Shown: positions 25,387 through 64,000 of the stretch, piece after piece | Layout of the letters: each line of letters starts with the position of its first letter | Numbering within the stretch: position 1 is the stretch's first letter | Assembly: GCA_019695095.1 (NCBI GenBank) | Contig: JAIBAQ010000010.1 | Location: forward strand, 7,845-71,844 | Reading direction: 5' to 3' | DNA from: Candidatus Hydrogenedentota bacterium | GTDB taxonomy: Bacteria > Hydrogenedentota > Hydrogenedentia > Hydrogenedentales > SLHB01 | DNA length: 64,000 nt | Position numbers and translations under genes: made by a program | The notes under the pieces: model-generated | The model's database searches: none | What the model saw: the letters and a program-made list of their open reading frames with translations, nothing else | What the model was told of the DNA's origin: nothing

Positions 25387-25537
25387 TCAGCAATTTGCAG
25401 GACTTTAAGGTTATGCCATGAGGATTTCTCGCGAACACGCTCTGTCTTTGGAGAGCAGCTTTGCTTTTCGCCACAAGTCTCGTAAGCACACTGGTTACGA
25501 GATAGGCTCAAGTGTGTTCGTGAGAAATCCGGGCTAG
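25383..25537 (+). mobile_element. MITE-like repeat, copy A (155 bp, 5' hairpin partly deleted)
   Basis: CTAG at both ends, the left one containing the shc stop; 17-bp outer stem 25422-25438/25514-25530; inner stem TCTCGTAA/TTACGAGA. Confidence 0.8.
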
Positions 25538-45662: not shown

Positions 45663-45691
45663 TGTTGCGCTCCTCCAGCGTGTCAAGTGAC

Positions 45692-45885
45692 CCAGCCCCG
45701 ATCTCTCACGAACACAATTGAACCTCTTTCGCAACCAGGGTGTTTGCGAAACTTGCGGCGAAGAACATAGCGGTTATCCGAGAACAAAGTGTGTTCGCGA
45801 GAGATCCTCATGGCATAACCTCAGCGTCTTACACGTGAGCAATTTGCGTCGGCGCTCAAGCGCGCCGGTGCAAACTGCGGACTAC
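45692..45885 (-). mobile_element. MITE-like repeat, copy B (194 bp, full length)
   Basis: Same length and layout as copy C; ends GTAG and CTGG; outer stem GATCTCTCGCGAACAC/GTGTTCGTGAGAGATC; inner stem TTTCGCAA/TTGCGAAA. Confidence 0.8.
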
Positions 45886-50361: not shown

Positions 50362-53088
50362 CTAGTCGGTGAGTTGGGCCTCGAATTGGTACGATCCTGA
50401 ATGAACAAGGTAAGTGGACCTACCGTTCTCATGGCCCAGGAAATCCACCCCATGTGCTGATTTGGCCGGCACTTGGCTCTCAAGCACGGATTCGGATGAC
50501 TTGGACGGCACGCAAACGGTGGCTGTGGTGTTCGGCGGAATCTCAATTGTCCATGTGAACGTGTGGTCTTTTGCCCTCCATTCGCTTACGATGGGACCCC
50601 TTATCGTCGCGTGCTTAACCCTGACCCAGTCTAAGCCATCCGGAACGTCCGGACTCAGGACGAAATGGCGGTAGCCTGGTGACAACTCGTCAGAGCGGAT
50701 ACCGCCCAAGCCGCGATAGAACCATTCCTCCGCATGTCCAAGCATGCAATGATTGTTGGACGAAGCAGGGTTGGCGTCCCACGCTTCTGTCAGCGAGGTG
50801 GCATTCTTGTTGAGCTGGTCGACATAGCCGGGGCCCTCATCTTGCACGACCATCTTGTACAGGGTGTCACCAGCGCCGTTGTCGGTCAGTGTGCGCACGA
50901 GATAGGAGAATCCCACGTCTCCAGCGGTTACGTGGTACCCCCCACTCTTAATCCGGTCGACCAGTCCCTCAAGCACCGCAGCACGGTCCGCTTCCGGGAC
51001 CAACCCCACGACGAACGGCATCGCGCTGGCGGTTTGGCTTCCCTGGTCGTAGTCTCCGGGATTGGCTTTGTGAAACTGCCGGTTAAACGCGTCGCGCACG
51101 AGCACGGCACGCTCGGCAAACCGCTTGGCGTCATCGGGCTTCCCTAGTACCGTGGCGACTTTCGCCATTACGCTCAGGTCTTGGTAATAGACGGCCGTCG
51201 CCGTCAACCCCTTGGAAGTCAATTGCGATTCCCCCGGGCTCTTGGGTCCGATGTCGTACCAGTCGCCCAGCCCGTGAGATACGATGTTATCCTGCGCAGT
51301 CGTTGCGAGGTAGTCGACGTACCGCTGCATGGTTACGTAATTGACCTCCAAAACACGGCGGTCGCCGTAGGTCAGGTAGGTATACCAAGGGTTAAGAATG
51401 CTGGCACTACCCCATTCGGGTGAATCGACAAAGCCACCGTTGAAGACGGTGTATTCCGGCGCGATGTCGGGTACGAGGCCGTTCTCGCGCTGGGAATCGC
51501 GCATGTCGCGCGAGACCTTTGCGTAGAACCGCGGCACATCGTAGTTGTACATAATCGCGCCCGCGAGCAGATGAGAAACCTCAAGCCATCCAAGCTTCTC
51601 GCGGTGCGGACAATCCGTCAAGACACTCTGGAAATTGCTCCGAATGGCGGTGAGTATCAGTTCGTGGATACGGTTGACCGTCTCGTTCGAGCACGAGAAT
51701 TCGCCGGCAATCTCCGCGGCGGCATAGGTAAAGTCGCCTTTCAGATCAAGGACAATCGGCCCCTTGGAGCGCCGTTCGGCCATCTTTTCCGGAGTCGCTC
51801 CCTCGACCTGAACGTAGCGGAATCCATAGTAGGAGAATTGGGGCCTCCATTCTTCGATTCCCTTTCCTGCCAACGTGTAACTAAACCACACAGGCCCACC
51901 GGAACTACGTTGGGTAACGAGGCCATCTCCATCCAACAGCTCTCCAGGAATCAACTTTACCGTCGATCCCCTCGGACCTTTCACGCGAAGAATCGGTCGC
52001 CCAGAGGTGTTCTGCCCGAGGTCGTACACGAATATGCCCGGCTTCGGCTGCGTTACCCCCACGGCGTCGCGTACGCGCATAACCTTGATCGGCAAACTGC
52101 CTTCGCTTGTAAGGCGTCCGCCGGGACCTTGGCTTTCAACCGCAGGCACCCAGCTAGAATCACCATATTGAGGCATGGTCCAACCGGGCTTCACTTCGCG
52201 AGCATCGTAATCCTCCCCGCCGTAAATGCATGAGAAGACCACCGGGCCGGGGCTTGTCTTCCACGATGAGTCGGTGACGACGTCATGCGTCGTACCGTCC
52301 TCGTACTCGAGGTGCAGGATGGCCGTGAGCGAGGGCGGTCCAAAGGACCCCTTGAATTTCACGTAACGGCCGCCTTTGACGTTGTACATGCCGTTTCCGA
52401 GCATCACGCCGACGGCGTTTGCGCCCTTCTGCAGCAGCGTAGTGACTTCATAGCTGCTATATACACACGTCTTCTTGTAGTTCGTCCAGTCTGGCGCAAA
52501 TACGGAATCTCCGACTCTATTGCCATTCAAGTAAAGTTCATGGAAGCCAAGGCCGCAGAGGTACACCACGGCCCGCCTGATTCGCCCTTCGACTGCGAAC
52601 TCCTTCCGAAACAGGGGCAATGGACCCGATCCGTCAAGTTGGCTCGTAATCCACTTTCCGGTCCATTCTTCCGGACGCAGTACCCCCATGGCCCACTGTG
52701 CAGGCTTGCTCCATCCGCTCTCTACTCCATCTTGGTTCCACACACGCACTCTCCAAAAGCAAACCTGGTGCGAAACAAGTGGAGTGCCTCCATAGACGAT
52801 TTGGCTTTGCTCTGGTGATTCAACCTTGCCGGAATCCCACAGGTCACCCTTTCCCTGATCCAGGATACCCGCAGACGTGGCCACAAGAACTTGGTAGGCC
52901 GACTGGCGCTGCGCCCTTGTTGAAGACTGAAGCTCCCAGCTCAGCCGAGGACTCGCCACATCGAGTCCGATAGGGGACCGCAAATACTCGCAGCGCAAGT
53001 TGACAGCTTCAATCTGAGCCCACGACTCGAACGACGCGCTTGCCAGAATGGCAAGAAGCACCACCCATTTGATAGTAAGTATCTTCAT
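50362..53088 (-). CDS. Alpha-L-rhamnosidase (GH78), secreted
   Basis: LRCEYLRSPIGLD, YDLGQN, FSYYGFRYVQV, TDCPHREKLGW, TSLTEAW, NHCMLG. Confidence 0.93.
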   Translation of the reverse strand: MKILTIKWVVLLAILASASFESWAQIEAVNLRCEYLRSPIGLDVASPRLSWELQSSTRAQRQSAYQVLVATSAGILDQGKGDLWDSGKVESPEQSQIVYGGTPLVSHQVCFWRVRVWNQDGVESGWSKPAQWAMGVLRPEEWTGKWITSQLDGSGPLPLFRKEFAVEGRIRRAVVYLCGLGFHELYLNGNRVGDSVFAPDWTNYKKTCVYSSYEVTTLLQKGANAVGVMLGNGMYNVKGGRYVKFKGSFGPPSLTAILHLEYEDGTTHDVVTDSSWKTSPGPVVFSCIYGGEDYDAREVKPGWTMPQYGDSSWVPAVESQGPGGRLTSEGSLPIKVMRVRDAVGVTQPKPGIFVYDLGQNTSGRPILRVKGPRGSTVKLIPGELLDGDGLVTQRSSGGPVWFSYTLAGKGIEEWRPQFSYYGFRYVQVEGATPEKMAERRSKGPIVLDLKGDFTYAAAEIAGEFSCSNETVNRIHELILTAIRSNFQSVLTDCPHREKLGWLEVSHLLAGAIMYNYDVPRFYAKVSRDMRDSQRENGLVPDIAPEYTVFNGGFVDSPEWGSASILNPWYTYLTYGDRRVLEVNYVTMQRYVDYLATTAQDNIVSHGLGDWYDIGPKSPGESQLTSKGLTATAVYYQDLSVMAKVATVLGKPDDAKRFAERAVLVRDAFNRQFHKANPGDYDQGSQTASAMPFVVGLVPEADRAAVLEGLVDRIKSGGYHVTAGDVGFSYLVRTLTDNGAGDTLYKMVVQDEGPGYVDQLNKNATSLTEAWDANPASSNNHCMLGHAEEWFYRGLGGIRSDELSPGYRHFVLSPDVPDGLDWVRVKHATIRGPIVSEWRAKDHTFTWTIEIPPNTTATVCVPSKSSESVLESQVPAKSAHGVDFLGHENGRSTYLVHSGSYQFEAQLTD

Positions 53089-53653: not shown

Positions 53654-54565
53654 TTAACCCAGTAGGTTCTCTGCATCTGCGCGTAACGAATCGGGAACAT
53701 CGTTGCAGCGCATCAAGCGATGAAGATAGGTTCGGGATTCGTCGCGTCTACCAAGTGCGACCAAGATCTTCGCCAGGGCAATGTATGCAAAGTGGAACTC
53801 GGAATCGCTGCTGATCGCATTTGCCAATACGGCGACGGCTTTGTCGAATTGCTTCTGCCCAATGTAGACATCCGCAAGAAACGAACAGACTTCGCGATCC
53901 GCGGGGTTAATTTCAAAGGCACGATCCGCATAGTGAAGAGCCCGCTCGATATTGCCCTCCATTTTCTGGCGGTCGGCGGCGAGCAGGAAGCCTTTCGCGC
54001 GCACATCAGGTGCAACGTCTTTGGGACAGAAGAAACTCCCGTACGCTCCGACCGGGAGTTCATAGGGCTGAAAAATGTTTGGATACGGGTGGAAGTCTTC
54101 CGGATACCAAACGCTTCGGTGCAATTCCCCGGGATTCCCGTGACACTCCGGATGATCCCAGCCTTCACCAAGCGGAATATTCACCAGCAAAGCACGAGTC
54201 GCCTTCTCGTACAATTGTTCAAGGACCCGCTCGCCCTCATCTTTGTGCAGGTGCTCAATAACATCGCCGGCGATAATCAGCTCGTATTGGTCCAGAGTCG
54301 GTGCAATCTCACGAATGTCGCCGATGATGATGTTCGAATACAGTGCGCGTTGGTGAGTCTGAATATAGGGTTCAAAGAGTTCTATACCGTCTATCCGGGT
54401 TTTCCACGTCGAAGGTTGGACACGAGTCTCCATAACGTCCAGATATTCACGGCAAAGGAATCCCCACATTCCAAACCCGCACCCGACATCAAGAACTGAC
54501 TTGGGGTGCAAGGAGTAGATGCAAGTCATACAATGCGAAATTTGGATCATTGCGCTAACGGGCAT
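53654..54565 (-). CDS. Class I SAM-dependent methyltransferase with C-terminal TPR repeats
   Basis: VLDVGCGFG, GIELF, GDVIEHL; C-terminal TPR-like helices; divergent from fliW. Confidence 0.85.
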   Translation of the reverse strand: MPVSAMIQISHCMTCIYSLHPKSVLDVGCGFGMWGFLCREYLDVMETRVQPSTWKTRIDGIELFEPYIQTHQRALYSNIIIGDIREIAPTLDQYELIIAGDVIEHLHKDEGERVLEQLYEKATRALLVNIPLGEGWDHPECHGNPGELHRSVWYPEDFHPYPNIFQPYELPVGAYGSFFCPKDVAPDVRAKGFLLAADRQKMEGNIERALHYADRAFEINPADREVCSFLADVYIGQKQFDKAVAVLANAISSDSEFHFAYIALAKILVALGRRDESRTYLHRLMRCNDVPDSLRADAENLLG

Positions 54566-54915
54566 AGACGAATCCCACTGGTTTTGCTCCTCCTCAGAAC
54601 ATGACAAGTGTATCATTATCCTCCATCAGGCGATAGACTACGTATCAGGGGGGAGCCTGGACCGATCTTGCGACAACGTCGACCTATCCTGCTTCTCCGC
54701 GACAGGGCTTGCTGCAAGCGTCTTCCCTACCGGCTGCCTGCGGTCCGGTCTGCGCGCATCGGTCATCAATTTGCGTCCATGTCCACTGAAAACCAGCGAC
54801 TTCGGGGAGCAGCGACCGTCACTAAGGGGCGTGCCAACTAACGCTTGCGCCGGGGGACGGATTCGGGCATACTTAAGCAGCGCTAAGACTTAGGCAGGGT
54901 TGAGAACTGTCGAGC

Positions 54916-55389
54916 ATGGAACTAAAGACTACACGCTTCGGGACACTTCAAGTAGACCCAGCCACCATAGTGACTTTCACTCAGCCGATTCTGGGGTTTC
55001 AAGAGTTTCGCCGTTACATCACCTTGCCGGGGCCAAGTGAACATTTGACGTGGCTTCAGTCAACGGACTCGGGCGATTTGGCCTTTATACTGCTTGACCC
55101 TAAGACGATAGTTGCCGACTATCATGCGGGGATCCGGCCGGATGAGATGACTGAGTTGGCAGTGTCTTCACCGGAAGAATTGGATGTGTACACGCTGATC
55201 GTAGTTCCGCAGGATCCTTCGAAGGTCCGGACGAACCTGAAGGCTCCAATTCTAATCAATCCCAAGCATCGCCTTGGAAAACAGACGATCTTGGATCGAT
55301 CCAACTATCCGGTTCAGTACTTCCTCGCGCAGGCAAAGCGCTCCGGCACGGAGGCGGGAGAGGTGGCGAATGCTCGTTCTGACGCGTAA
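54916..55389 (+). CDS. fliW: Flagellar assembly factor FliW
   Basis: [33 protein letters not shown]; overlaps csrA by 20 nt. Confidence 0.95.
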
Positions 55390-55591
55390 AGAGAATGAGA
55401 ACATCATGATTGGGGACGACATTGTCGTGAAGGTTCTCGATGTCCGCGAAAATCAAGTGAAGATTGGAATCGTGGCTCCACGCTCGGTAGCCGTGCATCG
55501 CCAAGAAGTCTACGACGCTATTCAGGCGGAAAACTCGCAGGCAGCCCGGGTCACCCAAGTGGAAGCGATCACCAATCTGATACCGCGTTAA
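55370..55591 (+). CDS. csrA: Carbon storage regulator CsrA
   Basis: MLVLTRK...[11 protein letters not shown]...[20 protein letters not shown]; Asn55 and a C-terminal extension as in FliW-regulated CsrA. Confidence 0.97.
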
Positions 55592-55605
55592 GGGGAGATG
55601 AAGAC

Positions 55606-56232
55606 ATGGATGTCATTATCGACGGGAACCGCACTCACACCTTTGAAACCGCCCCATCCGAAGTAATTGCCGCCCTGGGAGAAGTTAGTGCCACGCTTCA
55701 AAGCGAAGGCCGCGCAATCGTGGGAATCAACATCGACGGACAGAATCTCACCGCCGATCGCTTGGCCGAAGTTCTGGAAAACAAGACTCCCGATCAAGTT
55801 GGGACGATTTCAGTATCTACGGAACGTGTCGCGATTCTGGTGGGACAAGCGCTCGACGAGCTTGAACAAAGCCTCCCGAATCTGCCTCAAGCCTGTCACG
55901 AACTTGCGCATGTATTCCAAGGCGCAGACCCGACGCAAGGTTTTCAACACTTTCAGGTGCTTGCCGAGCTGTGGTCACATGTGAAGGAGCGCGAGAATAC
56001 CGTCGCGCATGCGCTTGGATTGGATTTGGATTCGATGAAGGTTGGCGATACTTCCGTCAAAATGCTTCACGAGCACCTGAACAGAACATTGGATGACGCG
56101 GTGCGCGCGATGGAGTCTCAGGATTTGGTGCTTCTTGGCGATCTTCTCGAATACGAACTGGCGCCCCGCGCCGAGTCCGAAGCGGAGATAGTCTCGATGC
56201 TCAAGGCGCAGGCGCAGGAGCGGGCCAGCTAG
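55606..56232 (+). CDS. Hypothetical protein, flagellar-locus associated
   Basis: 208 aa, GGGGAG RBS, helical C-half ending DLVLLGDLLEYELAP. Confidence 0.75.
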   Translation: MDVIIDGNRTHTFETAPSEVIAALGEVSATLQSEGRAIVGINIDGQNLTADRLAEVLENKTPDQVGTISVSTERVAILVGQALDELEQSLPNLPQACHELAHVFQGADPTQGFQHFQVLAELWSHVKERENTVAHALGLDLDSMKVGDTSVKMLHEHLNRTLDDAVRAMESQDLVLLGDLLEYELAPRAESEAEIVSMLKAQAQERAS

Positions 56233-56422
56233 CCCGCAATTTGCACCGGCGCAACTTAACGCCGATGCAAATTGCTCAAGCGCAAGGCGTTGAGGTTATG
56301 CCATGAGGATTTCTCGCGAACACACACTGTATGTGGAGAACTATCCCCATTTTCACTGCAAGCCGCACGAACGCACTGGTCACGAGATAGTCTCATGTGT
56401 GTTCGTGAGAAATCCGGACTAG
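56229..56422 (+). mobile_element. MITE-like repeat, copy C (194 bp, full length)
   Basis: CTAG at both ends, the left one containing the upstream stop; 5' hairpin GCAATTTGCA/TGCAAATTGC; 19-bp outer stem 56307-56325/56397-56415; ends 2 nt before an ATG. Confidence 0.82.
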
Positions 56423-56424
56423 GC

Positions 56425-59400
56425 ATGGCCTCGCCCCGCATCCTGACGTTTAATTTCCATGAACCTTATCTGTGTCTGCTTGCACAAACGGGTTTCGCAT
56501 TCGATGTGGGTCAGTTTGAAAAGCCGCCCTTCGCGCGAGAATGGCAGACCCGGTTTCGCCCACTCCCCCCGAATCTAACATTGGTCGAAGAAAAGGTATG
56601 GCGAAGGGAATTGCAGGCAGGCAAGTACGACGTCGTAATTGCCCACAATGAGCTCAACGCGAATGACCTATTTGGTTGCCCGGCCTCGGCCATACTGGTC
56701 TGTCACAACCGCAGAAACTTCCTTGAGACAACCGTAACCGGGGATAAGGAAGAGGGCAAGAACGCCTACGAGAAGATCCTCGCCAAGCTTCAGGAACAAT
56801 TCTCATTCGTGTTCATTTCCGAGGCGAAGCGCCAGAGCTACGGACTCGAAGGCACAGTCATACTCCCCGGAATCGATGTTAACGACTATGGCGGCTACAT
56901 GGGAGAACGGAGGGAAATACTTCGGGTTGGCAATGCCATGCGCGCCCGAAACCTGATGTTCGACGTGGATTTTCAGGAAGCGGTTTGCCTGGGTCTTCCC
57001 CATCGCGTTGTCGGAGAGGACCCGCAGATTCCGGGAGCACGACCTTCCCAGTCCTTCGAAGAACTCCTTGGATACTTCAGGGACCTGCGCTGCCTTCTAC
57101 ATGTCACCTGCCATCCCTTTGAAGACGGCTACAACTTATCGATGTTGGAGGCCATGGCTTGCGGCATGCCGGTGGTCTCGCTGGCAAATCCATCTTCGCC
57201 GCTGACGGATGGTCGGGACGGCTTGGTGGCAACTGACGTTCAGGGACTTCGCGAACGTCTATCGCGATTGCTAGAAGATGTGATTTATGCGCGAGAGATT
57301 GGCGCTCAAGGACGCGAAACCGTTTCGCGCGCGTATCCGTTGCAGCGATTCGTGCAACAATGGCAGGAAGTCATTGAAAAGGCAGCGGAATCCGGGCCGC
57401 GCGGCCGGGCTGCTGTTGCTGCCAAGCGAATCGCGGAATCCATGGCTTCCGCACAAGACTCATCACTTCCGCGACTCAACGTTCTGCTCGAGTACTACGT
57501 ATCACCAATCACGACCGGAAGATACTTCGAGACTGCGCTTCGGAAGACGCAAAACGTAACGGTTGCCGGGGTCACTGTACCGCTCTCGACTCTCAAAGGT
57601 TGGGGATTCACCGGAACACCGCCGTTCGAATCAAGACCTGACGTCCTGCACGGACCGGACGAACCTTACAGCGAACTCATGCGGCGCCTGGGCGAAGACA
57701 AGAAGCCGCACCTGCTTCTGTGGATCGACTCTGGCCTTGCGGGCATGCCCACAGACTCGCACGCACTGGGGGTTCCGCGTGTTTGTTACATCATTGATAC
57801 GCATTGCATGTTAAGTCACCGGATCGAGATCGCGAAGCACTTCGATTACACGTTTCTTGCCCAACCGACTTACATGCAGCACTTCGTGGACGCCGGCGTC
57901 AAAAATGTCGCGTGGCTTCCGCTGGGGTGTTCACCCGAGTTGCACCATATCGAGCCTCAAGAACGCGTTTACGATGTAGCATTCGTCGGCGGAATCCCGG
58001 AGGACAAGAACGATCGACGTCGCAAGCTCATAGACGCGGTTTGCGCGCATTTCCCGAATCACGTGGTAGGCCGCTTCTGGCCTGAGGAGATGGCGCGTAT
58101 CTACGCCCAATCGAAAATCGTCATCAACATCGCGGCGGCGCGCGACACCAACATGCGCGTATACGAAGGAATGGCCTCGGGCGCCTTATTGATCACCGAC
58201 GAGGCCGACGGCCTTGAAGAACTCTTCAACGATGGAGAGCATCTGGTTATCTATCGGCATGACGAGGATCTCATTCCCACTATCGAGCGATTCCTTGCTG
58301 ACGATGAGACACGCATGCGTATCGCACATGCGGGCAAAGCGTTTGTTTTGTCCGAGCACACGTACGATGTCCGCATTCGTCTCATGCTGGCGATGGTTCT
58401 CGAGTCTCTTGGACTCTTGGGCGGCTACCAGGGCGAATCACGGTTCAATCGAGGCGGATACTACCGTTCACCGCGACCCGAACTGGCGCGCCAAGTGCCC
58501 AAGCATGTGCAGCGTCTACTCGATGTCGGCTGCGGGGGTGGAGAATTCGGACTGTCACTAAAGCGCCGCGGCGTTCGCTATGTCGCGGGTATTGAGGTTG
58601 TGGAGCGCGCGTGGAGTCTCGCCAAGCAGGCGCTCGACGACGCGGTTCTTGGAAATATCGAACACATGGCCCTTCCTTTCGAGGAAGGGACCTTCGACTG
58701 CATTGTCTGCGGTGACGTCCTGGAGCACCTCGTAGAACCCGCGCAAGCGTTACGAAAACTCGCGCGCATGTTGGAGCCGGAAGGTCTGGTAGTCATCAGC
58801 ATTCCCAATATCCAGTTCTGGATGACATTCGAGATGCTATCGAATGGACGATGGCATTATGAAGATGCCGGTATCATGGACCGCACCCATTTGCGCTTCT
58901 TTTGCGCGGAAGACGTTCGTGAACTGATTCGCGACGCGGGCCTGGAAATAGTCCGCATGGAACCGCTGTCTATGTGGTCGGCGGATCACCTTCCACGAGA
59001 TGCGAACGGATGCCTGAGACTTGGTAAAGCAACCATTGGCCCATTGACCGACGAAGAGTACCGTGATTACCTGACGTATCAGTTCCTCGTCGTGGCAGGG
59101 AAAAAGGGGTTCGATAGACTCGCGCTTGCCAGGCGCGCCATCGAAGTTGGCGATCCTTCGTTTGCTCTTTACCTGGCCGAAAGCGTAACCGACACGTCCA
59201 ATGTCGAACGACAGCGCGTGATGGCGATCGCTGCGGCCAAAATGGGTAAAGCCGATTTGGCCGAGAGGCTTCTTAGGGATGCACTCTCCTTACCCAGGGC
59301 CGCTACAAGCTTGCACGGCGATCTGGGTATCTTGTTGGTCGCGCTAAACCGCCCTGAAGAAGCGGTCACACATCTAGAGCTCGTCCTTGAATCCGATCCG

Positions 59401-59760
59401 GATAATAGCCGCTACCTCGGGGGCTTAGGTCTCGCCTACACCAGCCTGGGGAAATACGCCGAAGCATTTGCCCATCTGGTCCGCGCATTGGACGTCGACT
59501 TTCAAAACGCCCCCCTCACGATGCATCTCATTGCTGCCGCGCGCGCGTCGAACCGTTTGTCCGATGCCGAGCCCATTGTGAAGCGGTTCGTGGATTTCTT
59601 CCCAGGAACAAAGGAAGTCGGATACGCGTATGCGGAACTGCTGTGCGATCTGGGAAAGAAGGACGCGGCGCGCGATGCCCTGGACACATTGCTTATGCTT
59701 GCTCCAGACTATGAGCCGGCCCTTGCACTGCTGGCGGCATTGGATAGACGCGAGGTATGA
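56425..59760 (+). CDS. Multi-domain glycosyltransferase: GT4-like + CgeB-like GT + SAM methyltransferase + TPR
   Basis: EDGYNLSMLEAMACGMPVV (GT-B E-x7-E); NMRVYEGMASGALLITD; LLDVGCGGG...DVLEHL...DRTHLRFF; C-terminal TPRs. The ORF-track extension to 56272 reads through the repeat element. Confidence 0.88.
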   Translation: MASPRILTFNFHEPYLCLLAQTGFAFDVGQFEKPPFAREWQTRFRPLPPNLTLVEEKVWRRELQAGKYDVVIAHNELNANDLFGCPASAILVCHNRRNFLETTVTGDKEEGKNAYEKILAKLQEQFSFVFISEAKRQSYGLEGTVILPGIDVNDYGGYMGERREILRVGNAMRARNLMFDVDFQEAVCLGLPHRVVGEDPQIPGARPSQSFEELLGYFRDLRCLLHVTCHPFEDGYNLSMLEAMACGMPVVSLANPSSPLTDGRDGLVATDVQGLRERLSRLLEDVIYAREIGAQGRETVSRAYPLQRFVQQWQEVIEKAAESGPRGRAAVAAKRIAESMASAQDSSLPRLNVLLEYYVSPITTGRYFETALRKTQNVTVAGVTVPLSTLKGWGFTGTPPFESRPDVLHGPDEPYSELMRRLGEDKKPHLLLWIDSGLAGMPTDSHALGVPRVCYIIDTHCMLSHRIEIAKHFDYTFLAQPTYMQHFVDAGVKNVAWLPLGCSPELHHIEPQERVYDVAFVGGIPEDKNDRRRKLIDAVCAHFPNHVVGRFWPEEMARIYAQSKIVINIAAARDTNMRVYEGMASGALLITDEADGLEELFNDGEHLVIYRHDEDLIPTIERFLADDETRMRIAHAGKAFVLSEHTYDVRIRLMLAMVLESLGLLGGYQGESRFNRGGYYRSPRPELARQVPKHVQRLLDVGCGGGEFGLSLKRRGVRYVAGIEVVERAWSLAKQALDDAVLGNIEHMALPFEEGTFDCIVCGDVLEHLVEPAQALRKLARMLEPEGLVVISIPNIQFWMTFEMLSNGRWHYEDAGIMDRTHLRFFCAEDVRELIRDAGLEIVRMEPLSMWSADHLPRDANGCLRLGKATIGPLTDEEYRDYLTYQFLVVAGKKGFDRLALARRAIEVGDPSFALYLAESVTDTSNVERQRVMAIAAAKMGKADLAERLLRDALSLPRAATSLHGDLGILLVALNRPEEAVTHLELVLESDPDNSRYLGGLGLAYTSLGKYAEAFAHLVRALDVDFQNAPLTMHLIAAARASNRLSDAEPIVKRFVDFFPGTKEVGYAYAELLCDLGKKDAARDALDTLLMLAPDYEPALALLAALDRREV

Positions 59761-61538
59761 AACCCGCGTCTGCATGGATTGAATCACTCTCTAGCGTAGA
59801 GGTTCCTTCCTCGATTGCGCTTGTTCAAGGACCTGGCGCGAACCCTTCGATCACCATCGATGGCGTTTACCTCCACAGCAAGTATCGCCCCCGCGAAGAG
59901 GCAGAAGCGCTCATCGACTCCCTTGAGTTGGCGCAGACCGAGCCCGTGCTCGTTGTGGGCCTCGGACTTGGTTATCACGTACAAGTCTTGCTGGAGCGGG
60001 GCTTCGACGTGTGCGCCGTCGAATGTGAACCGGCGGTCGCCAAGCTTGCGTTGCAGGGGTCGTTAAAAAACACGGAGTTCCTTCTAGCCGTCGGCTGCGC
60101 TGACGCATTGTCGCGAGATTCGGAACTCTTGGCGTTTCTCAAGAAACATCCACAGGTTCTGCTCCACCCGCCCACTGCGCGTGTTCGAAGCGCTTTTGTC
60201 TCCGAAATTGAACGGCTTGTAGCGCGGGCAGGCATTGAGGGCGAACGCCTGGGGATTGCTGTCGTGGGGCCGATGTACGGTGGGTCGCTGCCGATAGCAA
60301 AGTATCTCGCGGATGCCTTCACAGCGCTTGGTCACCGAACGTTGTATGTGGACAACAGCAGTATCTGGCCCGTTTATCAAGCCATCACCCAGAGCATTGA
60401 GACACGTCAGGCCAACTCCCAACTGTCCGCGATGCTGGTGAACCTTGCCGGCGAGTGGAGCTATGCGCGTGTTGCGGAGTTCGATCCGAACATCTGCATC
60501 GTGATGGCGCAGGCTCCGGTCGGGGCGGATTGGCCTGCGAGACTCAACAAGAATGAGATCGTCACGGCATTCTGGTTTGTAGAGAATTGGCGCCATATGA
60601 CGTACTGGCGCGATATCGCGTCTCGCTACGATTACTTCTTCCATATTCAACCCGGCGAGTTTGAACGCCAATTGAGGGAGGCTGGATGCCCCCATCATGC
60701 CTACGTTCAAACGGCCTGCGATCCCCGCGTACACAAACCCGTGGAATTGACGAGCGACGACGAACGCACCTACGGATGCGATCTGTCGTTTGCCGGCGCT
60801 GGGTACCATAACCGTAATCAGTTCTTTCAGGGTCTTACGGACTACAACTTCAAGATTTGGGGTGTCGAATGGCAGGCTCGGGAACTCATCAATCACGTTC
60901 AGAATCCGAACGAGCGTTTCGGCCCCGAGGAATTCGCGAAGATCGTGGCTGCCTCGAAGATTAATCTGAATCTGCACTCCAGCGCCACGCACAATGGCGT
61001 CGATCCCCACTGCGATGCCATCAATCCACGCGTATTTGAAATAGCCGCTTGCGGCGGTTTTCAGCTCTGTGACCCTTGCCGTGGACTGGATACATTGCTC
61101 GATCCCGAAACGGAATTACCCGTCTATCGCGACTTGCCTGAACTGCGAGCCCTCATCGACCGGTTTCTTGAGAGCCCTGAAGAGCGCCAGGCTTTTGCCG
61201 ACCGCGCCAGGTCGCGTGTGTTGAGAGACCACACTTATGAGAAGCGCGCCCAGCAAATGCTCGATCTGATCGTGGACCAGCACGGTTCCCGTATACTTAG
61301 CAAGGGAATTCGTGCGCTTCGTACCGTGGGGGAAATGGCGGAACGTGTTGGCGTCGATACCGCCCTCGGCAGATACCTTCAGTCTCTGCCGAAGGATCTG
61401 CCCTTTACTCAAGAAGCCATCAACGAGCGCATTCCCGTGATGGGAACCAAGCTTAGCTATCCGGAAGCTCTGTTCTCCTATCTTCGGGAGATGCGCAACT
61501 CGTCAGAACAAATACTCGCGATGTTCGAGGGCGTGTAA
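59757..61538 (+). CDS. Maf-like N-terminal domain fused to a CgeB-family (DUF3880/Glyco_trans_1_2-like) glycosyltransferase
   Basis: LHSKYRPREEAE and VVGLGLGYHV at the N-terminus; DLSFAGAGY and INPRVFEIAACGGFQL; ATGA overlap with the previous gene. Confidence 0.8.
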   Translation: MKPASAWIESLSSVEVPSSIALVQGPGANPSITIDGVYLHSKYRPREEAEALIDSLELAQTEPVLVVGLGLGYHVQVLLERGFDVCAVECEPAVAKLALQGSLKNTEFLLAVGCADALSRDSELLAFLKKHPQVLLHPPTARVRSAFVSEIERLVARAGIEGERLGIAVVGPMYGGSLPIAKYLADAFTALGHRTLYVDNSSIWPVYQAITQSIETRQANSQLSAMLVNLAGEWSYARVAEFDPNICIVMAQAPVGADWPARLNKNEIVTAFWFVENWRHMTYWRDIASRYDYFFHIQPGEFERQLREAGCPHHAYVQTACDPRVHKPVELTSDDERTYGCDLSFAGAGYHNRNQFFQGLTDYNFKIWGVEWQARELINHVQNPNERFGPEEFAKIVAASKINLNLHSSATHNGVDPHCDAINPRVFEIAACGGFQLCDPCRGLDTLLDPETELPVYRDLPELRALIDRFLESPEERQAFADRARSRVLRDHTYEKRAQQMLDLIVDQHGSRILSKGIRALRTVGEMAERVGVDTALGRYLQSLPKDLPFTQEAINERIPVMGTKLSYPEALFSYLREMRNSSEQILAMFEGV

Positions 61539-61542
61539 CACC

Positions 61543-63261
61543 ATGAGCGACTGCGAGCGGCCCATTCGAATACTCGTTGCCCAGATGACACGCATGGGCG
61601 ATGTACTTCAGACATCCCCCCTCATCCGCTCGCTGCGCACACGCCATCCTGACGGACACATCGCGGTCATGGTCCGACGTATGGGCAAGTCCATTGCCGA
61701 ATGCAATCCCGATATCGACGAAGTGCTCGTGTACGAAGAGGACACGATGTTTCAAGATCTCAAGTCGGGCGACTCTGACCGCTTCCTCCACGCGTACGAG
61801 ACGGCAGGCGCATATGCCACGACGATTCGGGATGGCCGCTACGATGTGATTTACAACTGCACGCACAGTTTCTCTTCGGCCATTCTCTTCGCGGCTGCGG
61901 GCGCGCCTGAAGTTATTGGCGCGCATCTGAGCGACGATTGGCGCTATGTCATCCGTGGGCGCGGGCCAAACTACTTCTTCACAAGTATCCTTCATCGTGA
62001 ATACAACAACCTGAACCTCTGTGACGCGTTCCGATTCTTCCTCGTTGATCCTCCGGCATCGCAGGGACTGGTTATGAATGTAGGGGAAGCGGTCCGCGAA
62101 CAGGCCCACAGCATCCTGCGCGAATATGGAATCGCCGACAACGACTTCCTCGTATGCTTCCAGTTGGGAGCAAGCGACAAGGACAAGCGCTGGCCCGTGC
62201 AGCAGTTTGCCCGTCTTGCCGGATTCCTCAAGGAAAAGTACAACGCCAAGATCGCCTTGCTGGGCGTTTCCGCCGAGGCCTACCTAGGCCAGGAATTCGA
62301 GCGACTTGCTCCCGGAGTAGCGGTCCCCCTTTTCGGGAAGACTTCGGTGCCGCAACTTGCGGAAGTGCTGCGCCGGTCGCGCGTCCTCGTTACGAACGAC
62401 ACGGGCACGATGCATATTGCCGCTGCAATGCAATGCCCCATTGTGTTGGTCTCCGTGGGGTACGTCCATTTTCGCGAGACCGGCCCCTACGGGGCAGGGC
62501 ACATCGCGATTGAGCGCCGCCGCAGCAGCGTTGGACGCTCCGATATTCGCGAGTCCATTCGATCCGATGAGATCACTCCCGAGCAGGTGTTGAAGGCCGT
62601 CGAATTGGTTGTCGAACGCGAAAGTTCTGATGCGATTCCTTCCATCGACGATACGCCGAGCTTCTCGGATGTCGACATCTACTACTCCGGCTTCGCGCCG
62701 GACGGTTGCCTCGAATGGTACCCGGTCGTTCGCCGGCCCATGCAGGAACTCGATTTCATTCGCATGACGTATCGCGCGATGTGGCTTGATTTTCTAAGCG
62801 AGCGATCCGAAGTAACCGGCGAGTCCGCTGCATTCACGCGCATGCTTGCGTGCTTTGACGGCGATCAACACGAGGCGCTTGAGACGTGGCGGAATGGTAT
62901 GACGGAGATCATGCAGAAGCTTGTAACCGGTTCCAATACAGGTGTTCAGACTTCCGTGTCCCTCCTCAACGTGTTGCGTCAAGGCGAGAGCATGAAACGC
63001 GCGAAGGCGCTGGTGACTGAGCTTATGGACCTGGATGAGCAACTGCGGCTAATTGGTGAAGTACATCGCGTAGGCCGCCCGCTTGTGGCGATTGCGCGGT
63101 TCGAGCGTGACAACTTGGAGGGCGCCGATCCTGTGCACCTCACCCGCACCACGCGCGGGATCTACGAAGACATTCATACGCGCGCCACGCTCATGATTGA
63201 AAAGGCACACCGAATAGCGCAATTGGCTCAGGGCGAAAGTCAGAACACCGCGTCTACGTAA
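61543..63261 (+). CDS. GT9 (heptosyltransferase-family) glycosyltransferase with C-terminal helical extension
   Basis: RMGDVLQTSP, QLGAS...KRWP, LVTNDTGTMHIAAA, ETGPYG. Confidence 0.9.
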   Translation: MSDCERPIRILVAQMTRMGDVLQTSPLIRSLRTRHPDGHIAVMVRRMGKSIAECNPDIDEVLVYEEDTMFQDLKSGDSDRFLHAYETAGAYATTIRDGRYDVIYNCTHSFSSAILFAAAGAPEVIGAHLSDDWRYVIRGRGPNYFFTSILHREYNNLNLCDAFRFFLVDPPASQGLVMNVGEAVREQAHSILREYGIADNDFLVCFQLGASDKDKRWPVQQFARLAGFLKEKYNAKIALLGVSAEAYLGQEFERLAPGVAVPLFGKTSVPQLAEVLRRSRVLVTNDTGTMHIAAAMQCPIVLVSVGYVHFRETGPYGAGHIAIERRRSSVGRSDIRESIRSDEITPEQVLKAVELVVERESSDAIPSIDDTPSFSDVDIYYSGFAPDGCLEWYPVVRRPMQELDFIRMTYRAMWLDFLSERSEVTGESAAFTRMLACFDGDQHEALETWRNGMTEIMQKLVTGSNTGVQTSVSLLNVLRQGESMKRAKALVTELMDLDEQLRLIGEVHRVGRPLVAIARFERDNLEGADPVHLTRTTRGIYEDIHTRATLMIEKAHRIAQLAQGESQNTAST

Positions 63262-63994
63262 CCGAGACACCTTCCGCGCGCTGTTCGGCCAGCGCCAATC
63301 CCCGGTGAATCTCTTCCAGCACCGTTTCGCCCAGTTTCCCCTGCTTCTTCATCCACGCGCCGGTGTTGTGCAAGGCTGTGGGCAATCCGACCAACTTCAC
63401 ATCGGGCTGATCTTTGTACATCATCGCGATGCGCTTATCGGGACGGCAGCGTTCGCCGTAGAACAACGTCATGGATGGGCGCTTCTCTGCCTCCAGGTAG
63501 ACCTCTGGCAAGCGCCAGATGCCTTCGTGTCCCCCGACCGCGCGTTTGATCGCCATTTCCACGAAATTGGTGGCAAACGTAATGAAGGCGACTTCGTAGA
63601 ACTCCTCCCAACTCCTGAACAGCAGAGGCAGATCGGTATACGCCTTAAGCTGCATCATCGGCTCAAGGTAAGCCCGGAATGGACACGGCGGACTCATCGC
63701 AATCACGTGGTCCATGCCGCAACGTGTTCCGTAGTAAATGGCGGCACACCCGCCTACCGAATCGCCCAAGGCCACATAGCGTTTGGACTTCAACTGGTCC
63801 ATAACGCGAATCACTTCGCGCTCATAGAACTCGAGACCGCCTCCGCCGCCTTCCGGTTTGAGGTGATAGGCCAACCGGTGAATGTCGCGTATAAAGACAA
63901 GGTTGTAGTCGTCGCCATGCTTCATCAACAGCTTGCGGAACTCGAATGTGGGTTGTCCGGCAAACAGGAGCGCGCCCCCCGCGAACGAGAACAC
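63254..63994 (-). CDS. Alpha/beta-hydrolase-like protein, probably 5'-truncated at the window edge
   Basis: Nucleophile elbow LGDSVGG; FIRD upstream; C-terminal His (ALHN). Confidence 0.6.
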   Translation of the reverse strand: MFSFAGGALLFAGQPTFEFRKLLMKHGDDYNLVFIRDIHRLAYHLKPEGGGGGLEFYEREVIRVMDQLKSKRYVALGDSVGGCAAIYYGTRCGMDHVIAMSPPCPFRAYLEPMMQLKAYTDLPLLFRSWEEFYEVAFITFATNFVEMAIKRAVGGHEGIWRLPEVYLEAEKRPSMTLFYGERCRPDKRIAMMYKDQPDVKLVGLPTALHNTGAWMKKQGKLGETVLEEIHRGLALAEQRAEGVSVT

Positions 63995-64000
63995 GGTCGT

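Follow-up and report, generated by a model that had tools for sequence, protein, structure and literature searches.

Architecture of the fliW–csrA locus

The DNA window analysed here, 64,000 nucleotides long (C295:7845-71844), comes from a metagenome-assembled genome (MAG) of Candidatus Hydrogenedentota (6.77 Mb, 405 contigs). On its + strand, at 54916-63261, lie six co-directional genes, identified from the listing of open reading frames (ORFs) together with Pfam and NCBIfam searches and referred to here as fliW, csrA, p208, GTbig, p593 and p572 (Table 1). A preliminary description had read the region as fliW–csrA co-directional with a 208-aa protein and three large glycosyltransferases, an arrangement which the Pfam assignments bear out. 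The stretch from 54845 to 63261 is probably one operon that couples the FliW–CsrA checkpoint to a cytoplasmic machine for the O-glycosylation and methylation of flagellin; that flagellin would be the acceptor is suggested by homology, synteny, co-loss and flagellar neighbourhoods.

Table 1. Positions of the operon genes and adjoining features in the window
Feature	Position	Strand	Description
fliW	54916..55389	+	157 aa; flagellar assembly factor, CsrA antagonist; Pfam FliW PF02623, E 1.7e-32
csrA	55370..55591	+	73 aa; RNA-binding translational repressor; Pfam CsrA PF02599, E 2.6e-26
p208	55606..56232	+	208 aa; DUF8042/TP0873_N family
MITE-like dispersed repeat	56233..56422	+	between p208 stop and GTbig start
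GTbig	56425..59760	+	1111 aa; GT-B + GT-B + SAM methyltransferase + TPR
p593	59757..61538	+	593 aa; Maf N-terminal domain + CgeB-like GT-B
p572	61543..63261	+	572 aa; GT9-like + ~215-aa C-terminal extension
Promoter-like element	54845..54873	+	42 nt 5′ of the fliW ATG
Methyltransferase-like + TPR gene, divergent	53654..54616	-	320 aa; Pfam TPR, weak Methyltransf_23 match
Convergent ORF	63254..64000, runs off the window	-	full ORF C295:71098-72060(-), 320 aa; GDSVGG motif
MITE, miniature inverted-repeat transposable element; SAM, S-adenosylmethionine; TPR, tetratricopeptide repeat.

The genes are closely spaced. The start of csrA overlaps the end of fliW by 20 nt, p208 begins 14 nt after csrA, GTbig and p593 overlap by 4 nt, and a gap of 4 nt separates p593 from p572. 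In relatives, neighbouring genes of the block likewise share 4-bp stop/start overlaps. This tight packing, which includes a 2-nt spacer between p208 and GTbig in a sister species, indicates a single transcript, and the six genes are predicted on this basis to be co-transcribed. None of the six proteins has a transmembrane or hydrophobic segment, and the block, whose products are all soluble, contains no Wzx/Wzy or export genes and no lipid-carrier or flippase genes. Genes for pseudaminic or legionaminic acid biosynthesis are found neither in the block nor in its variable flanks, the remaining genome not having been searched for them. Rfam matched no known RNA in the window.

The junction between p208 and GTbig is occupied by a MITE-like dispersed repeat of ~190 bp, of which the genome holds ~150 copies with 79-84% identity. 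The copy at the junction measures 186 bp and is flanked by a CTAG target duplication. The corresponding empty site in G001, a genome of the same genus, reads GCCAGCTAGGCATGG, i.e., the p208 stop, 2 nt and the GTbig start. The repeat has a predicted RNA fold of -77.6 kcal/mol, no T-run terminator follows the junction copy, and both reading frames are left intact, while the translational coupling of p208 and GTbig is broken. Further copies of the repeat lie in the window at 45691-45880(-) and 25397-25537(+). The insertion also bears on the GTbig start. The first 51 codons of the ORF listed from a TTG at 56272 match ~100 other genomic places, i.e., they are dispersed repeat, so that the true start is the ATG at 56425. 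The earlier reading of this first large ORF as a glycosyltransferase stands; its listed start, 56272, was wrong.

Enzymes encoded by the operon

The GTbig product aligns end to end with orthologues in all relatives, at 44-57% identity. It contains a first GT-B module, recognized as Glyco_trans_1_4 at residues ~225-285 (Pfam coordinates, shifted by 51 aa), and a second GT-B module of the CgeB type at ~455-655, made up of DUF3880 and Glyco_trans_1_2 (PF12996, E 2e-5, and PF13524, E 4.7e-40). A SAM methyltransferase follows at ~684-843, which matches PDB entry 3cc8 (E 8e-37), and then a TPR array at ~938-1029, for which TPR structures in the PDB were hit as well. A methyltransferase and TPRs are therefore also present inside the operon, and GTbig unites a TPR array and a glycosyltransferase in one polypeptide with no transmembrane segment. 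Its catalytic modules are GT4/CgeB-like and belong neither to GT41, the FlmG-like family, nor to GT2, the family of GmaR. Shorter GTbig proteins of ~800-950 aa are encoded in G020, G022, G116, G121, G061 and G062, as well as at L117:5987-8851; they do not have the middle CgeB-like GT-B (query ~335-665), so that this middle module is variable.

The p593 protein is likewise of the CgeB type by Pfam, matching Glyco_trans_1_2 (PF13524, E 8.7e-36) and DUF3880 (PF12996, E 1e-9). Its N-terminal residues 6-159 correspond to the N-terminal domain of Maf: a profile of 26 p593 orthologues, compared with six Maf proteins by hhalign, aligned over 154 columns with 99.5% probability (E 2.5e-22). Pfam Maf_flag10_N (PF20157) matches 14 of the 26 orthologues, with a best E value of 1.3e-5. 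For GTbig and p572, a Maf N-terminal domain was considered and rejected, since hhalign was negative for both proteins, which thereby serve as negative controls. The MAF_flag10/MptE-like catalytic domain (PF01973) matched no protein of the operon. The AlphaFold2 (AF2) model of p593, with a predicted local distance difference test (pLDDT) score of 92, has a Rossmann-like Maf N-terminal domain followed by a complete GT-B fold, and the closest folds are those of retaining GT4 enzymes.

The last enzyme, p572, matches Pfam Glyco_transf_9 (PF01075) over residues 9-356 (E 1.3e-24). Its best PDB match is the GT9 protein 3tov (E 4e-24), followed by heptosyltransferases. No NCBIfam heptosyltransferase model reaches its cut-off, and the context is a fliW operon rather than a locus for the lipopolysaccharide (LPS) core. 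Orthologues of p572 (47-58% identity) invariably stand at the end of the block.

Conservation of the block and co-loss with flagellin

The order fliW–csrA–p208–GTbig–p593–p572 is kept in 20 of 20 relatives from 13 families wherever the contig reaches (±10 kb), and a metagenome scan returned 55 further contigs with the six-gene arrangement. This conservation is far beyond chance. One could suppose that a glycosylation island merely landed by fliW–csrA and that the adjacency has no meaning, and the flanks of the block, whose genes differ between genera as for a mobile unit, and the MITE-like repeat inserted within it agree with such a history. However, the gene order persists across the order and in another order, with overlapping reading frames; the conserved promoter-like element occurs only before fliW; and the block has been lost along with flagella. 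A meaningless adjacency is accordingly very improbable. A local variant is seen in G015 (L033:4399-6323), where GTbig and p593 are separated by two extra genes (213 and 428 aa) and the locus lacks a p572 orthologue.

The phyletic pattern was surveyed in 126 genomes from the phylum with ≥80% completeness, 104 of them with flagellin and 22 without. Homologues of p208, GTbig and p593 were detected in 95, 84 and 82 genomes, respectively. Every carrier is flagellin-positive, and the 22 genomes without flagellin have none of the three genes. Loss took place separately at least twice, in G009 within family f1 and in most of family f11.

Deeper relatives place the block beside flagellar genes. In G042, which belongs to another order, a canonical late flagellar operon lies upstream, so that one strand encodes rod-binding protein, FlgN, FlgK, FlgL, FliW, CsrA, p208, GTbig, p593 and p572. 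In G041, genes for FliM, a FliA-like sigma factor, FliK and an FlhB-C-like protein precede p208–GTbig, which stand together there without fliW–csrA. The metagenome contig L172 reads FlgL–FliW–CsrA–p208–GTbig. It had been said that homologues consistently embedded in LPS or exopolysaccharide (EPS) loci would speak against flagellin glycosylation; inside the phylum, homologues were found only in the fliW operon or beside flagellar genes, never in LPS/EPS loci.

These data also bear on the idea that the enzymes act on a target other than flagellin, e.g., another flagellar part, general O-glycoproteins or an envelope glycan, and are only co-regulated with motility. Such a target would accord with flagellin genes that lie >1 Mb away in complete relatives, with GT9 and GT4-like folds, which are typical of LPS and polysaccharide synthesis, with the work of CgeB-type proteins on spore surfaces, and with a GT2–TPR gene beside flagellin, described below, which could be the true flagellin enzyme. 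We nevertheless consider it unlikely, because the genes are co-lost with flagellin in all 22 aflagellate genomes, p593 has a Maf N-terminal domain and GTbig a TPR array, the proteins are soluble and the block is devoid of lipid-carrier, flippase and export genes, and the partner family DUF8042 stands repeatedly beside flagellin, FliD and Maf genes.

The p208 protein and the DUF8042 family

Precomputed labels assign p208, both the protein of this window (P0280) and those of relatives, to Pfam PF27299 (TP0873_N) and PF26154 (DUF8042). Among 41 relatives, close or at order level, 36 encode a homologue. In the AF2 model (pLDDT 89.7), an N-terminal beta-grasp domain (residues 1-74) is followed by a C-terminal four-helix bundle (75-207). 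No sequence match was found in the PDB and no Foldseek match below E 0.04 among solved structures, and no catalytic signature was recognized in p208. The assignment of p208 as a divergent FliS was rejected: a canonical FliS is encoded elsewhere in the genome, and hhalign gives a probability of only 12% for DUF8042 vs. FliS.

The family is large. A profile search against 1.84 billion representatives returned 2603 DUF8042 clusters at 50% identity (E≤1e-3). Among the matches listed, nearly all are ~205 aa long, with the common C-terminal motif D-x-V-x-L-x-DLL-x-YEL. The p208 motif EYELAPRAE occurs at 57 species-representative loci, all from MAGs of Candidatus Hydrogenedentota, a few of which are wrongly labelled as Nitrospiraceae.

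Distant DUF8042 genes were examined on metagenome contigs that are only distantly related to the locus and presumably come from other phyla. In six loci (L129, L136, L147, L149, L202 and L208), a bona fide Maf (MptE-like plus Maf_flag10_N) directly follows DUF8042; several of these loci also hold FlaG, FliS, flagellin or FlgK/L, and some distant DUF8042 genes overlap the bona fide maf gene. At L187, DUF8042 is preceded by a 943-aa FlmG-like TPR–GT41 protein with a flagellin gene beside it. DUF8042 directly follows FliD in L126, L127, L206 and L211, comes after an array of four flagellins in L188, and lies in L128 inside a glycosyltransferase island that repeats the set of GTbig-like, p593-like and GT9 proteins. 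Based on these neighbourhoods, p208 is a candidate adaptor for flagellin glycosylation. Two of the FliD-associated members (L126:362-1399 and L127:1791-2798), directly downstream of fliD, are long (335-345 aa) and AT-rich, with a duplicated helical region. TP0873 of Treponema pallidum, likewise encoded next to fliD, would fit this arrangement. The literature search returned no publication on TP0873 or DUF8042.

The flagellin glycosylation proposed in the preliminary description thus gains support from the co-loss, from the Maf N-terminal domain of p593 and from the occurrence of DUF8042 beside known flagellin glycosyltransferases, the acceptor itself being deduced from this context.

The FliW–CsrA pair and flagellin leaders

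Both regulators are single-copy in the genome; the NCBIfam FliW models match fliW, and the NCBIfam CsrA score of csrA exceeds the cut-off. The element 5′ of fliW reads TTGCG-N-GGCATACT, with TTGC as -35 and GCATACT as -10. Its general form, TTG[CA]-N16-21-[GT]CATA[AC]T, was found in the 150 nt before fliW at 27 of the 29 orthologous loci, compared with a mean of 0.02 loci in 500 shuffles, and in most of the 27 it sits 35-47 nt before the ATG, usually at ~40 nt. The promoter-like element is absent only where flgL directly precedes fliW (G042). A sigma-28 promoter before fliW was rejected, as no GCCGATA motif is present and TTGC…GCATACT is conserved there instead. The element is unusually invariant, TTGC(G)-N17-19-(T)GCATACT, with equivalents in L025-L044 and L109-L118.

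No flagellin gene lies in the window, as had been noted. The genome encodes at least three flagellins of ~270 aa on other contigs, together with FlgF/G/A/H/I and an FlgL-like protein, and the two single-contig genomes, G035 and G039, have 5-7 flagellin-N matches each, tandem arrays included, at >1 Mb from fliW. The objection that there might be no flagellin in the genome therefore fails.

The leaders of 16 flagellin genes, taken from this genome and from three relatives, were inspected by eye. In 14 of the 16, CA[ACT]GGAGG covers the Shine–Dalgarno site 8-13 nt before the start codon, and further upstream most leaders contain a short hairpin whose loop includes GGA, e.g., TGCACGGATGCA or GCGCATGGATGCGC. 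The flagellin mRNA leaders thus carry candidate CsrA-type sites. In Bacillus subtilis, CsrA blocks hag translation through the same two-site leader layout. A sigma-28-type GCCGATA -10 box is present at three single flagellin genes, with a TAAAG -35 at two of them.

Proposed mechanism and points against it

The operon could work as follows. CsrA would repress, in trans, the translation of the dispersed flagellin genes, whose leaders combine a GGA-loop hairpin with a CAYGGAGG Shine–Dalgarno sequence, and FliW, when free of cytoplasmic flagellin, would lift the repression. Two routes would capture new flagellin: the TPR array of GTbig, as in FlmG, and a complex of p208 with the Maf N-terminal domain of p593, by analogy to GlfM and Maf-2. 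Before export, four GT-B/GT9 modules and one SAM methyltransferase would then equip flagellin with a short methylated glycan, and the single transcript would fix the proportion of regulators, adaptor and enzymes. The short methylated O-glycan is predicted from the count of transferase modules and the one methyltransferase; the nature of the glycan and the adaptor role of DUF8042 are, in this scheme, deductions from domain content and context. Both a fusion of TPRs with a glycosyltransferase and a four-helix-bundle accessory factor lend the scheme support, as these are the two experimentally shown routes of flagellin recognition (PMC7591256; bioRxiv 10.1101/2023.12.03.569772).

Several observations weigh against such a coupling of checkpoint and modification. 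First, the operon enzymes are not the sole candidates for flagellin glycosylation. At locus L001, a GT2+TPR gene with GmaR-like architecture (C245:1943-3352) lies directly upstream of the flagellin gene C245:3497-4305, a single gene with a sigma-28-type -10 box. This pair is kept in at least five relatives (G006, G012, G016, G023 and G030), and the two genes lie within ~1.7 kb in G005 and G039. Second, the ±10 kb around the block contain no flagellin gene in any of the 20 relatives, so that the adjacent-flagellin layout of Firmicutes is not seen here. Third, the block encodes no nucleotide-sugar pathway. Fourth, the co-occurrence with flagellin (Fisher p 1e-17 to 1e-12) is uncorrected for phylogeny. 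Fifth, the structured repeat that separates p208 from the enzymes in this genome could affect co-expression. Sixth, DUF8042 is not always in flagellar company. On Planctomycetota-like contigs it comes after a PIG-L deacetylase, and flagellar genes are absent from the vicinity; five well-flanked metagenome DUF8042 loci have neither a flagellar neighbour nor a recognisable partner. The PIG-L contigs are L119, L120, L123, L124 and L125, which also have a divergent GNAT acetyltransferase; the genomes of L119 and L125, the two searched, encode flagellins of ~500 aa.

Finally, most f3 genera (G026, G037, G072 and G078) and f6 (G029) have flagellin and fliW–csrA–p208 with no downstream glycosyltransferases, and a p593 orthologue is absent from these enzyme-less genomes at E≤1e-20. 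Flagellation can therefore proceed without the enzymes, and p208 may act for FliW/CsrA rather than for them. The loci with the enzyme-less trio (L109, L110, L114, L115 and L118) form a natural comparison group.

Because f3 and f6 keep the trio without glycosyltransferases, fliW–csrA–p208 is the invariant core in the phylum, which raises the question of whether p208 is a third component, i.e., a partner or antagonist, of the FliW–CsrA switch, with the glycosyltransferases as mere cargo under its control. The gap of only 14 nt after csrA and a protein composed of a beta-grasp domain and a helical bundle, with no catalytic signature, are in keeping with a regulator of this kind. Outside the phylum, however, DUF8042 occurs without fliW–csrA and directly beside Maf, TPR–GT41 or glycosyltransferase islands, and in G041 p208 travels with GTbig rather than with fliW–csrA. 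We therefore regard a primarily regulatory p208 as improbable; regulatory and adaptor roles are compatible, not mutually exclusive. Coupling of the FliW–CsrA checkpoint to flagellin glycosylation and methylation is the preferred interpretation of the operon.

Comparison with known systems

GlfM of Shewanella oneidensis, a four-helix bundle of 89 aa, binds Maf-2 and assembles with it and flagellin into a ternary complex (bioRxiv 10.1101/2023.12.03.569772). The Hydrogenedentota operon resembles the GlfM–Maf-2 pair in three respects. First, a gene for a small soluble protein with a four-helix bundle lies beside a glycosyltransferase gene, and GlfM bridges enzyme and flagellin. Second, acidic residues are conserved in the last helix, D77/E80 in GlfM and D173, D179, E182 and E184 in p208. 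Third, p593 carries a Maf N-terminal domain, and distant DUF8042 genes overlap bona fide maf. There are also differences. At 208 aa, p208 is longer than GlfM and has an extra beta-grasp domain; glfM usually lies downstream of the enzyme gene, whereas p208 lies upstream; the catalytic domain of p593 is a CgeB-like GT-B rather than the MAF_flag10 fold; and the link to FliW–CsrA has not been described for GlfM.

By extension, DUF8042 might be a general adaptor of flagellin glycosylation, an analogue or very distant relative of GlfM, that serves at least four unrelated catalytic classes (Maf, FlmG-like TPR–GT41, Maf-N/GT-B chimeras and GT9). In Hydrogenedentota it would be hard-wired to FliW–CsrA and may take over flagellin from FliW or pass it on to FliW, which would make glycosylation a part of the flagellin-homeostasis checkpoint, and the Maf N-terminal domain would be an adaptor-docking module that can be combined with different catalytic folds. 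We offer this broader proposal tentatively, as a possibility that we rate below even chances. The p593 chimera suggests that the N-terminal domain of Maf is portable and serves to dock a substrate or an adaptor.

Flagellin glycosyltransferases guided by TPRs offer a second comparison. GmaR of Listeria monocytogenes combines TPRs and a GT2 glycosyltransferase in one polypeptide. In FlmG of Caulobacter crescentus, the TPR array binds flagellin, and the glycosyltransferase of the same polypeptide acts in the cytoplasm before export (PMC7591256). GTbig similarly joins TPRs and glycosyltransferase, and the GT2–TPR protein on C245 has the GmaR architecture. Unlike FlmG and GmaR, GTbig has its TPRs at the C-terminus, two GT4/CgeB-type GT-B modules in place of GT41 or GT2, an internal SAM methyltransferase, and no linked pseudaminic/legionaminic acid pathway. 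With Maf (PF01973 + PF20157), the operon shares the homologous N-terminal domain of p593, whereas the MAF_flag10/MptE-like domain is absent from the operon proteins and no nonulosonic-acid genes are nearby.

In Bacillus subtilis, Hag, FliW and CsrA form a stoichiometric switch (PMC6529632). The Hag–FliW–CsrA systems of Bacillus subtilis (PMC6529632) and Clostridioides difficile (PMC8523840) share with the present locus the adjacent, overlapping fliW and csrA genes and flagellin leaders with a GGA hairpin and a GGA that overlaps the Shine–Dalgarno sequence. The Firmicute order flgN–flgK–flgL before fliW–csrA is found in one deep relative, G042. In contrast to these systems, no flagellin follows csrA here, the flagellins being dispersed and, as their leaders suggest, probably regulated in trans, and in Hydrogenedentales the two genes are preceded by a promoter-like element of their own, with DUF8042 and glycosyltransferase genes downstream.

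The remaining similarities concern domains. Glyco_trans_1_2/DUF3880 in GTbig and p593 are shared with CgeB, which acts in spore-crust maturation in Bacillus subtilis, and Glyco_transf_9 in p572 with the GT9 heptosyltransferases of LPS. The context here is flagellar, not that of spores or the LPS core, and the Maf N-terminal domain, methyltransferase, TPRs and 215-aa C-terminal extension of the operon enzymes are absent from CgeB and the GT9 heptosyltransferases. Taken together, the operon works like the Maf, FlmG/GmaR and Firmicute systems without belonging to any of them, since the defining features (MAF_flag10, glycosyltransferase family and adjacent flagellin, respectively) are missing.

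The kinds of component are thus already known: a FliW–CsrA switch, TPR-guided and Maf-related flagellin glycosyltransferases, and a helical-bundle accessory factor. Three features are new relative to the literature searched, i.e., a phylum-wide operon that joins checkpoint and modification genes while the flagellin genes are dispersed, the chimera of Maf N-terminal domain and GT-B, and a recurring DUF8042 partner beside flagellin glycosyltransferases of different classes, fliD or flagellin. Nothing was found in the literature on flagellin glycosylation with CgeB, and the titles and abstracts on Hydrogenedentes flagella contain no work on flagellar regulation. If DUF8042 is a general missing specificity factor, the tripartite GlfM model, a recent proposal, would extend well beyond Maf-2 enzymes, and the family would offer a way to reconstitute the flagellin glycosylation of uncultured phyla.

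Genes flanking the operon

The divergent methyltransferase–TPR gene upstream of the block had been correctly described, as Pfam shows, and is a genus-specific neighbour that adjoins the block only in G001 and G002 of the same genus. Beside it, at 50362-53088(-), lies a complete GH78 alpha-L-rhamnosidase of 908 aa with five domains, which is kept there only within the genus. Both genes are neighbours within the genus only and hence outside the conserved unit. Downstream, the ORF that had been described as a convergent alpha/beta-hydrolase is indeed convergent and is cut by the window end, but no Pfam family matches its 320 aa, which contain GDSVGG, a serine-hydrolase-like motif. An orthologue adjoins the block only in G007, and this gene, too, is a neighbour outside the conserved unit; it continues to C295:72060 and is followed by an ORF of 429 aa.

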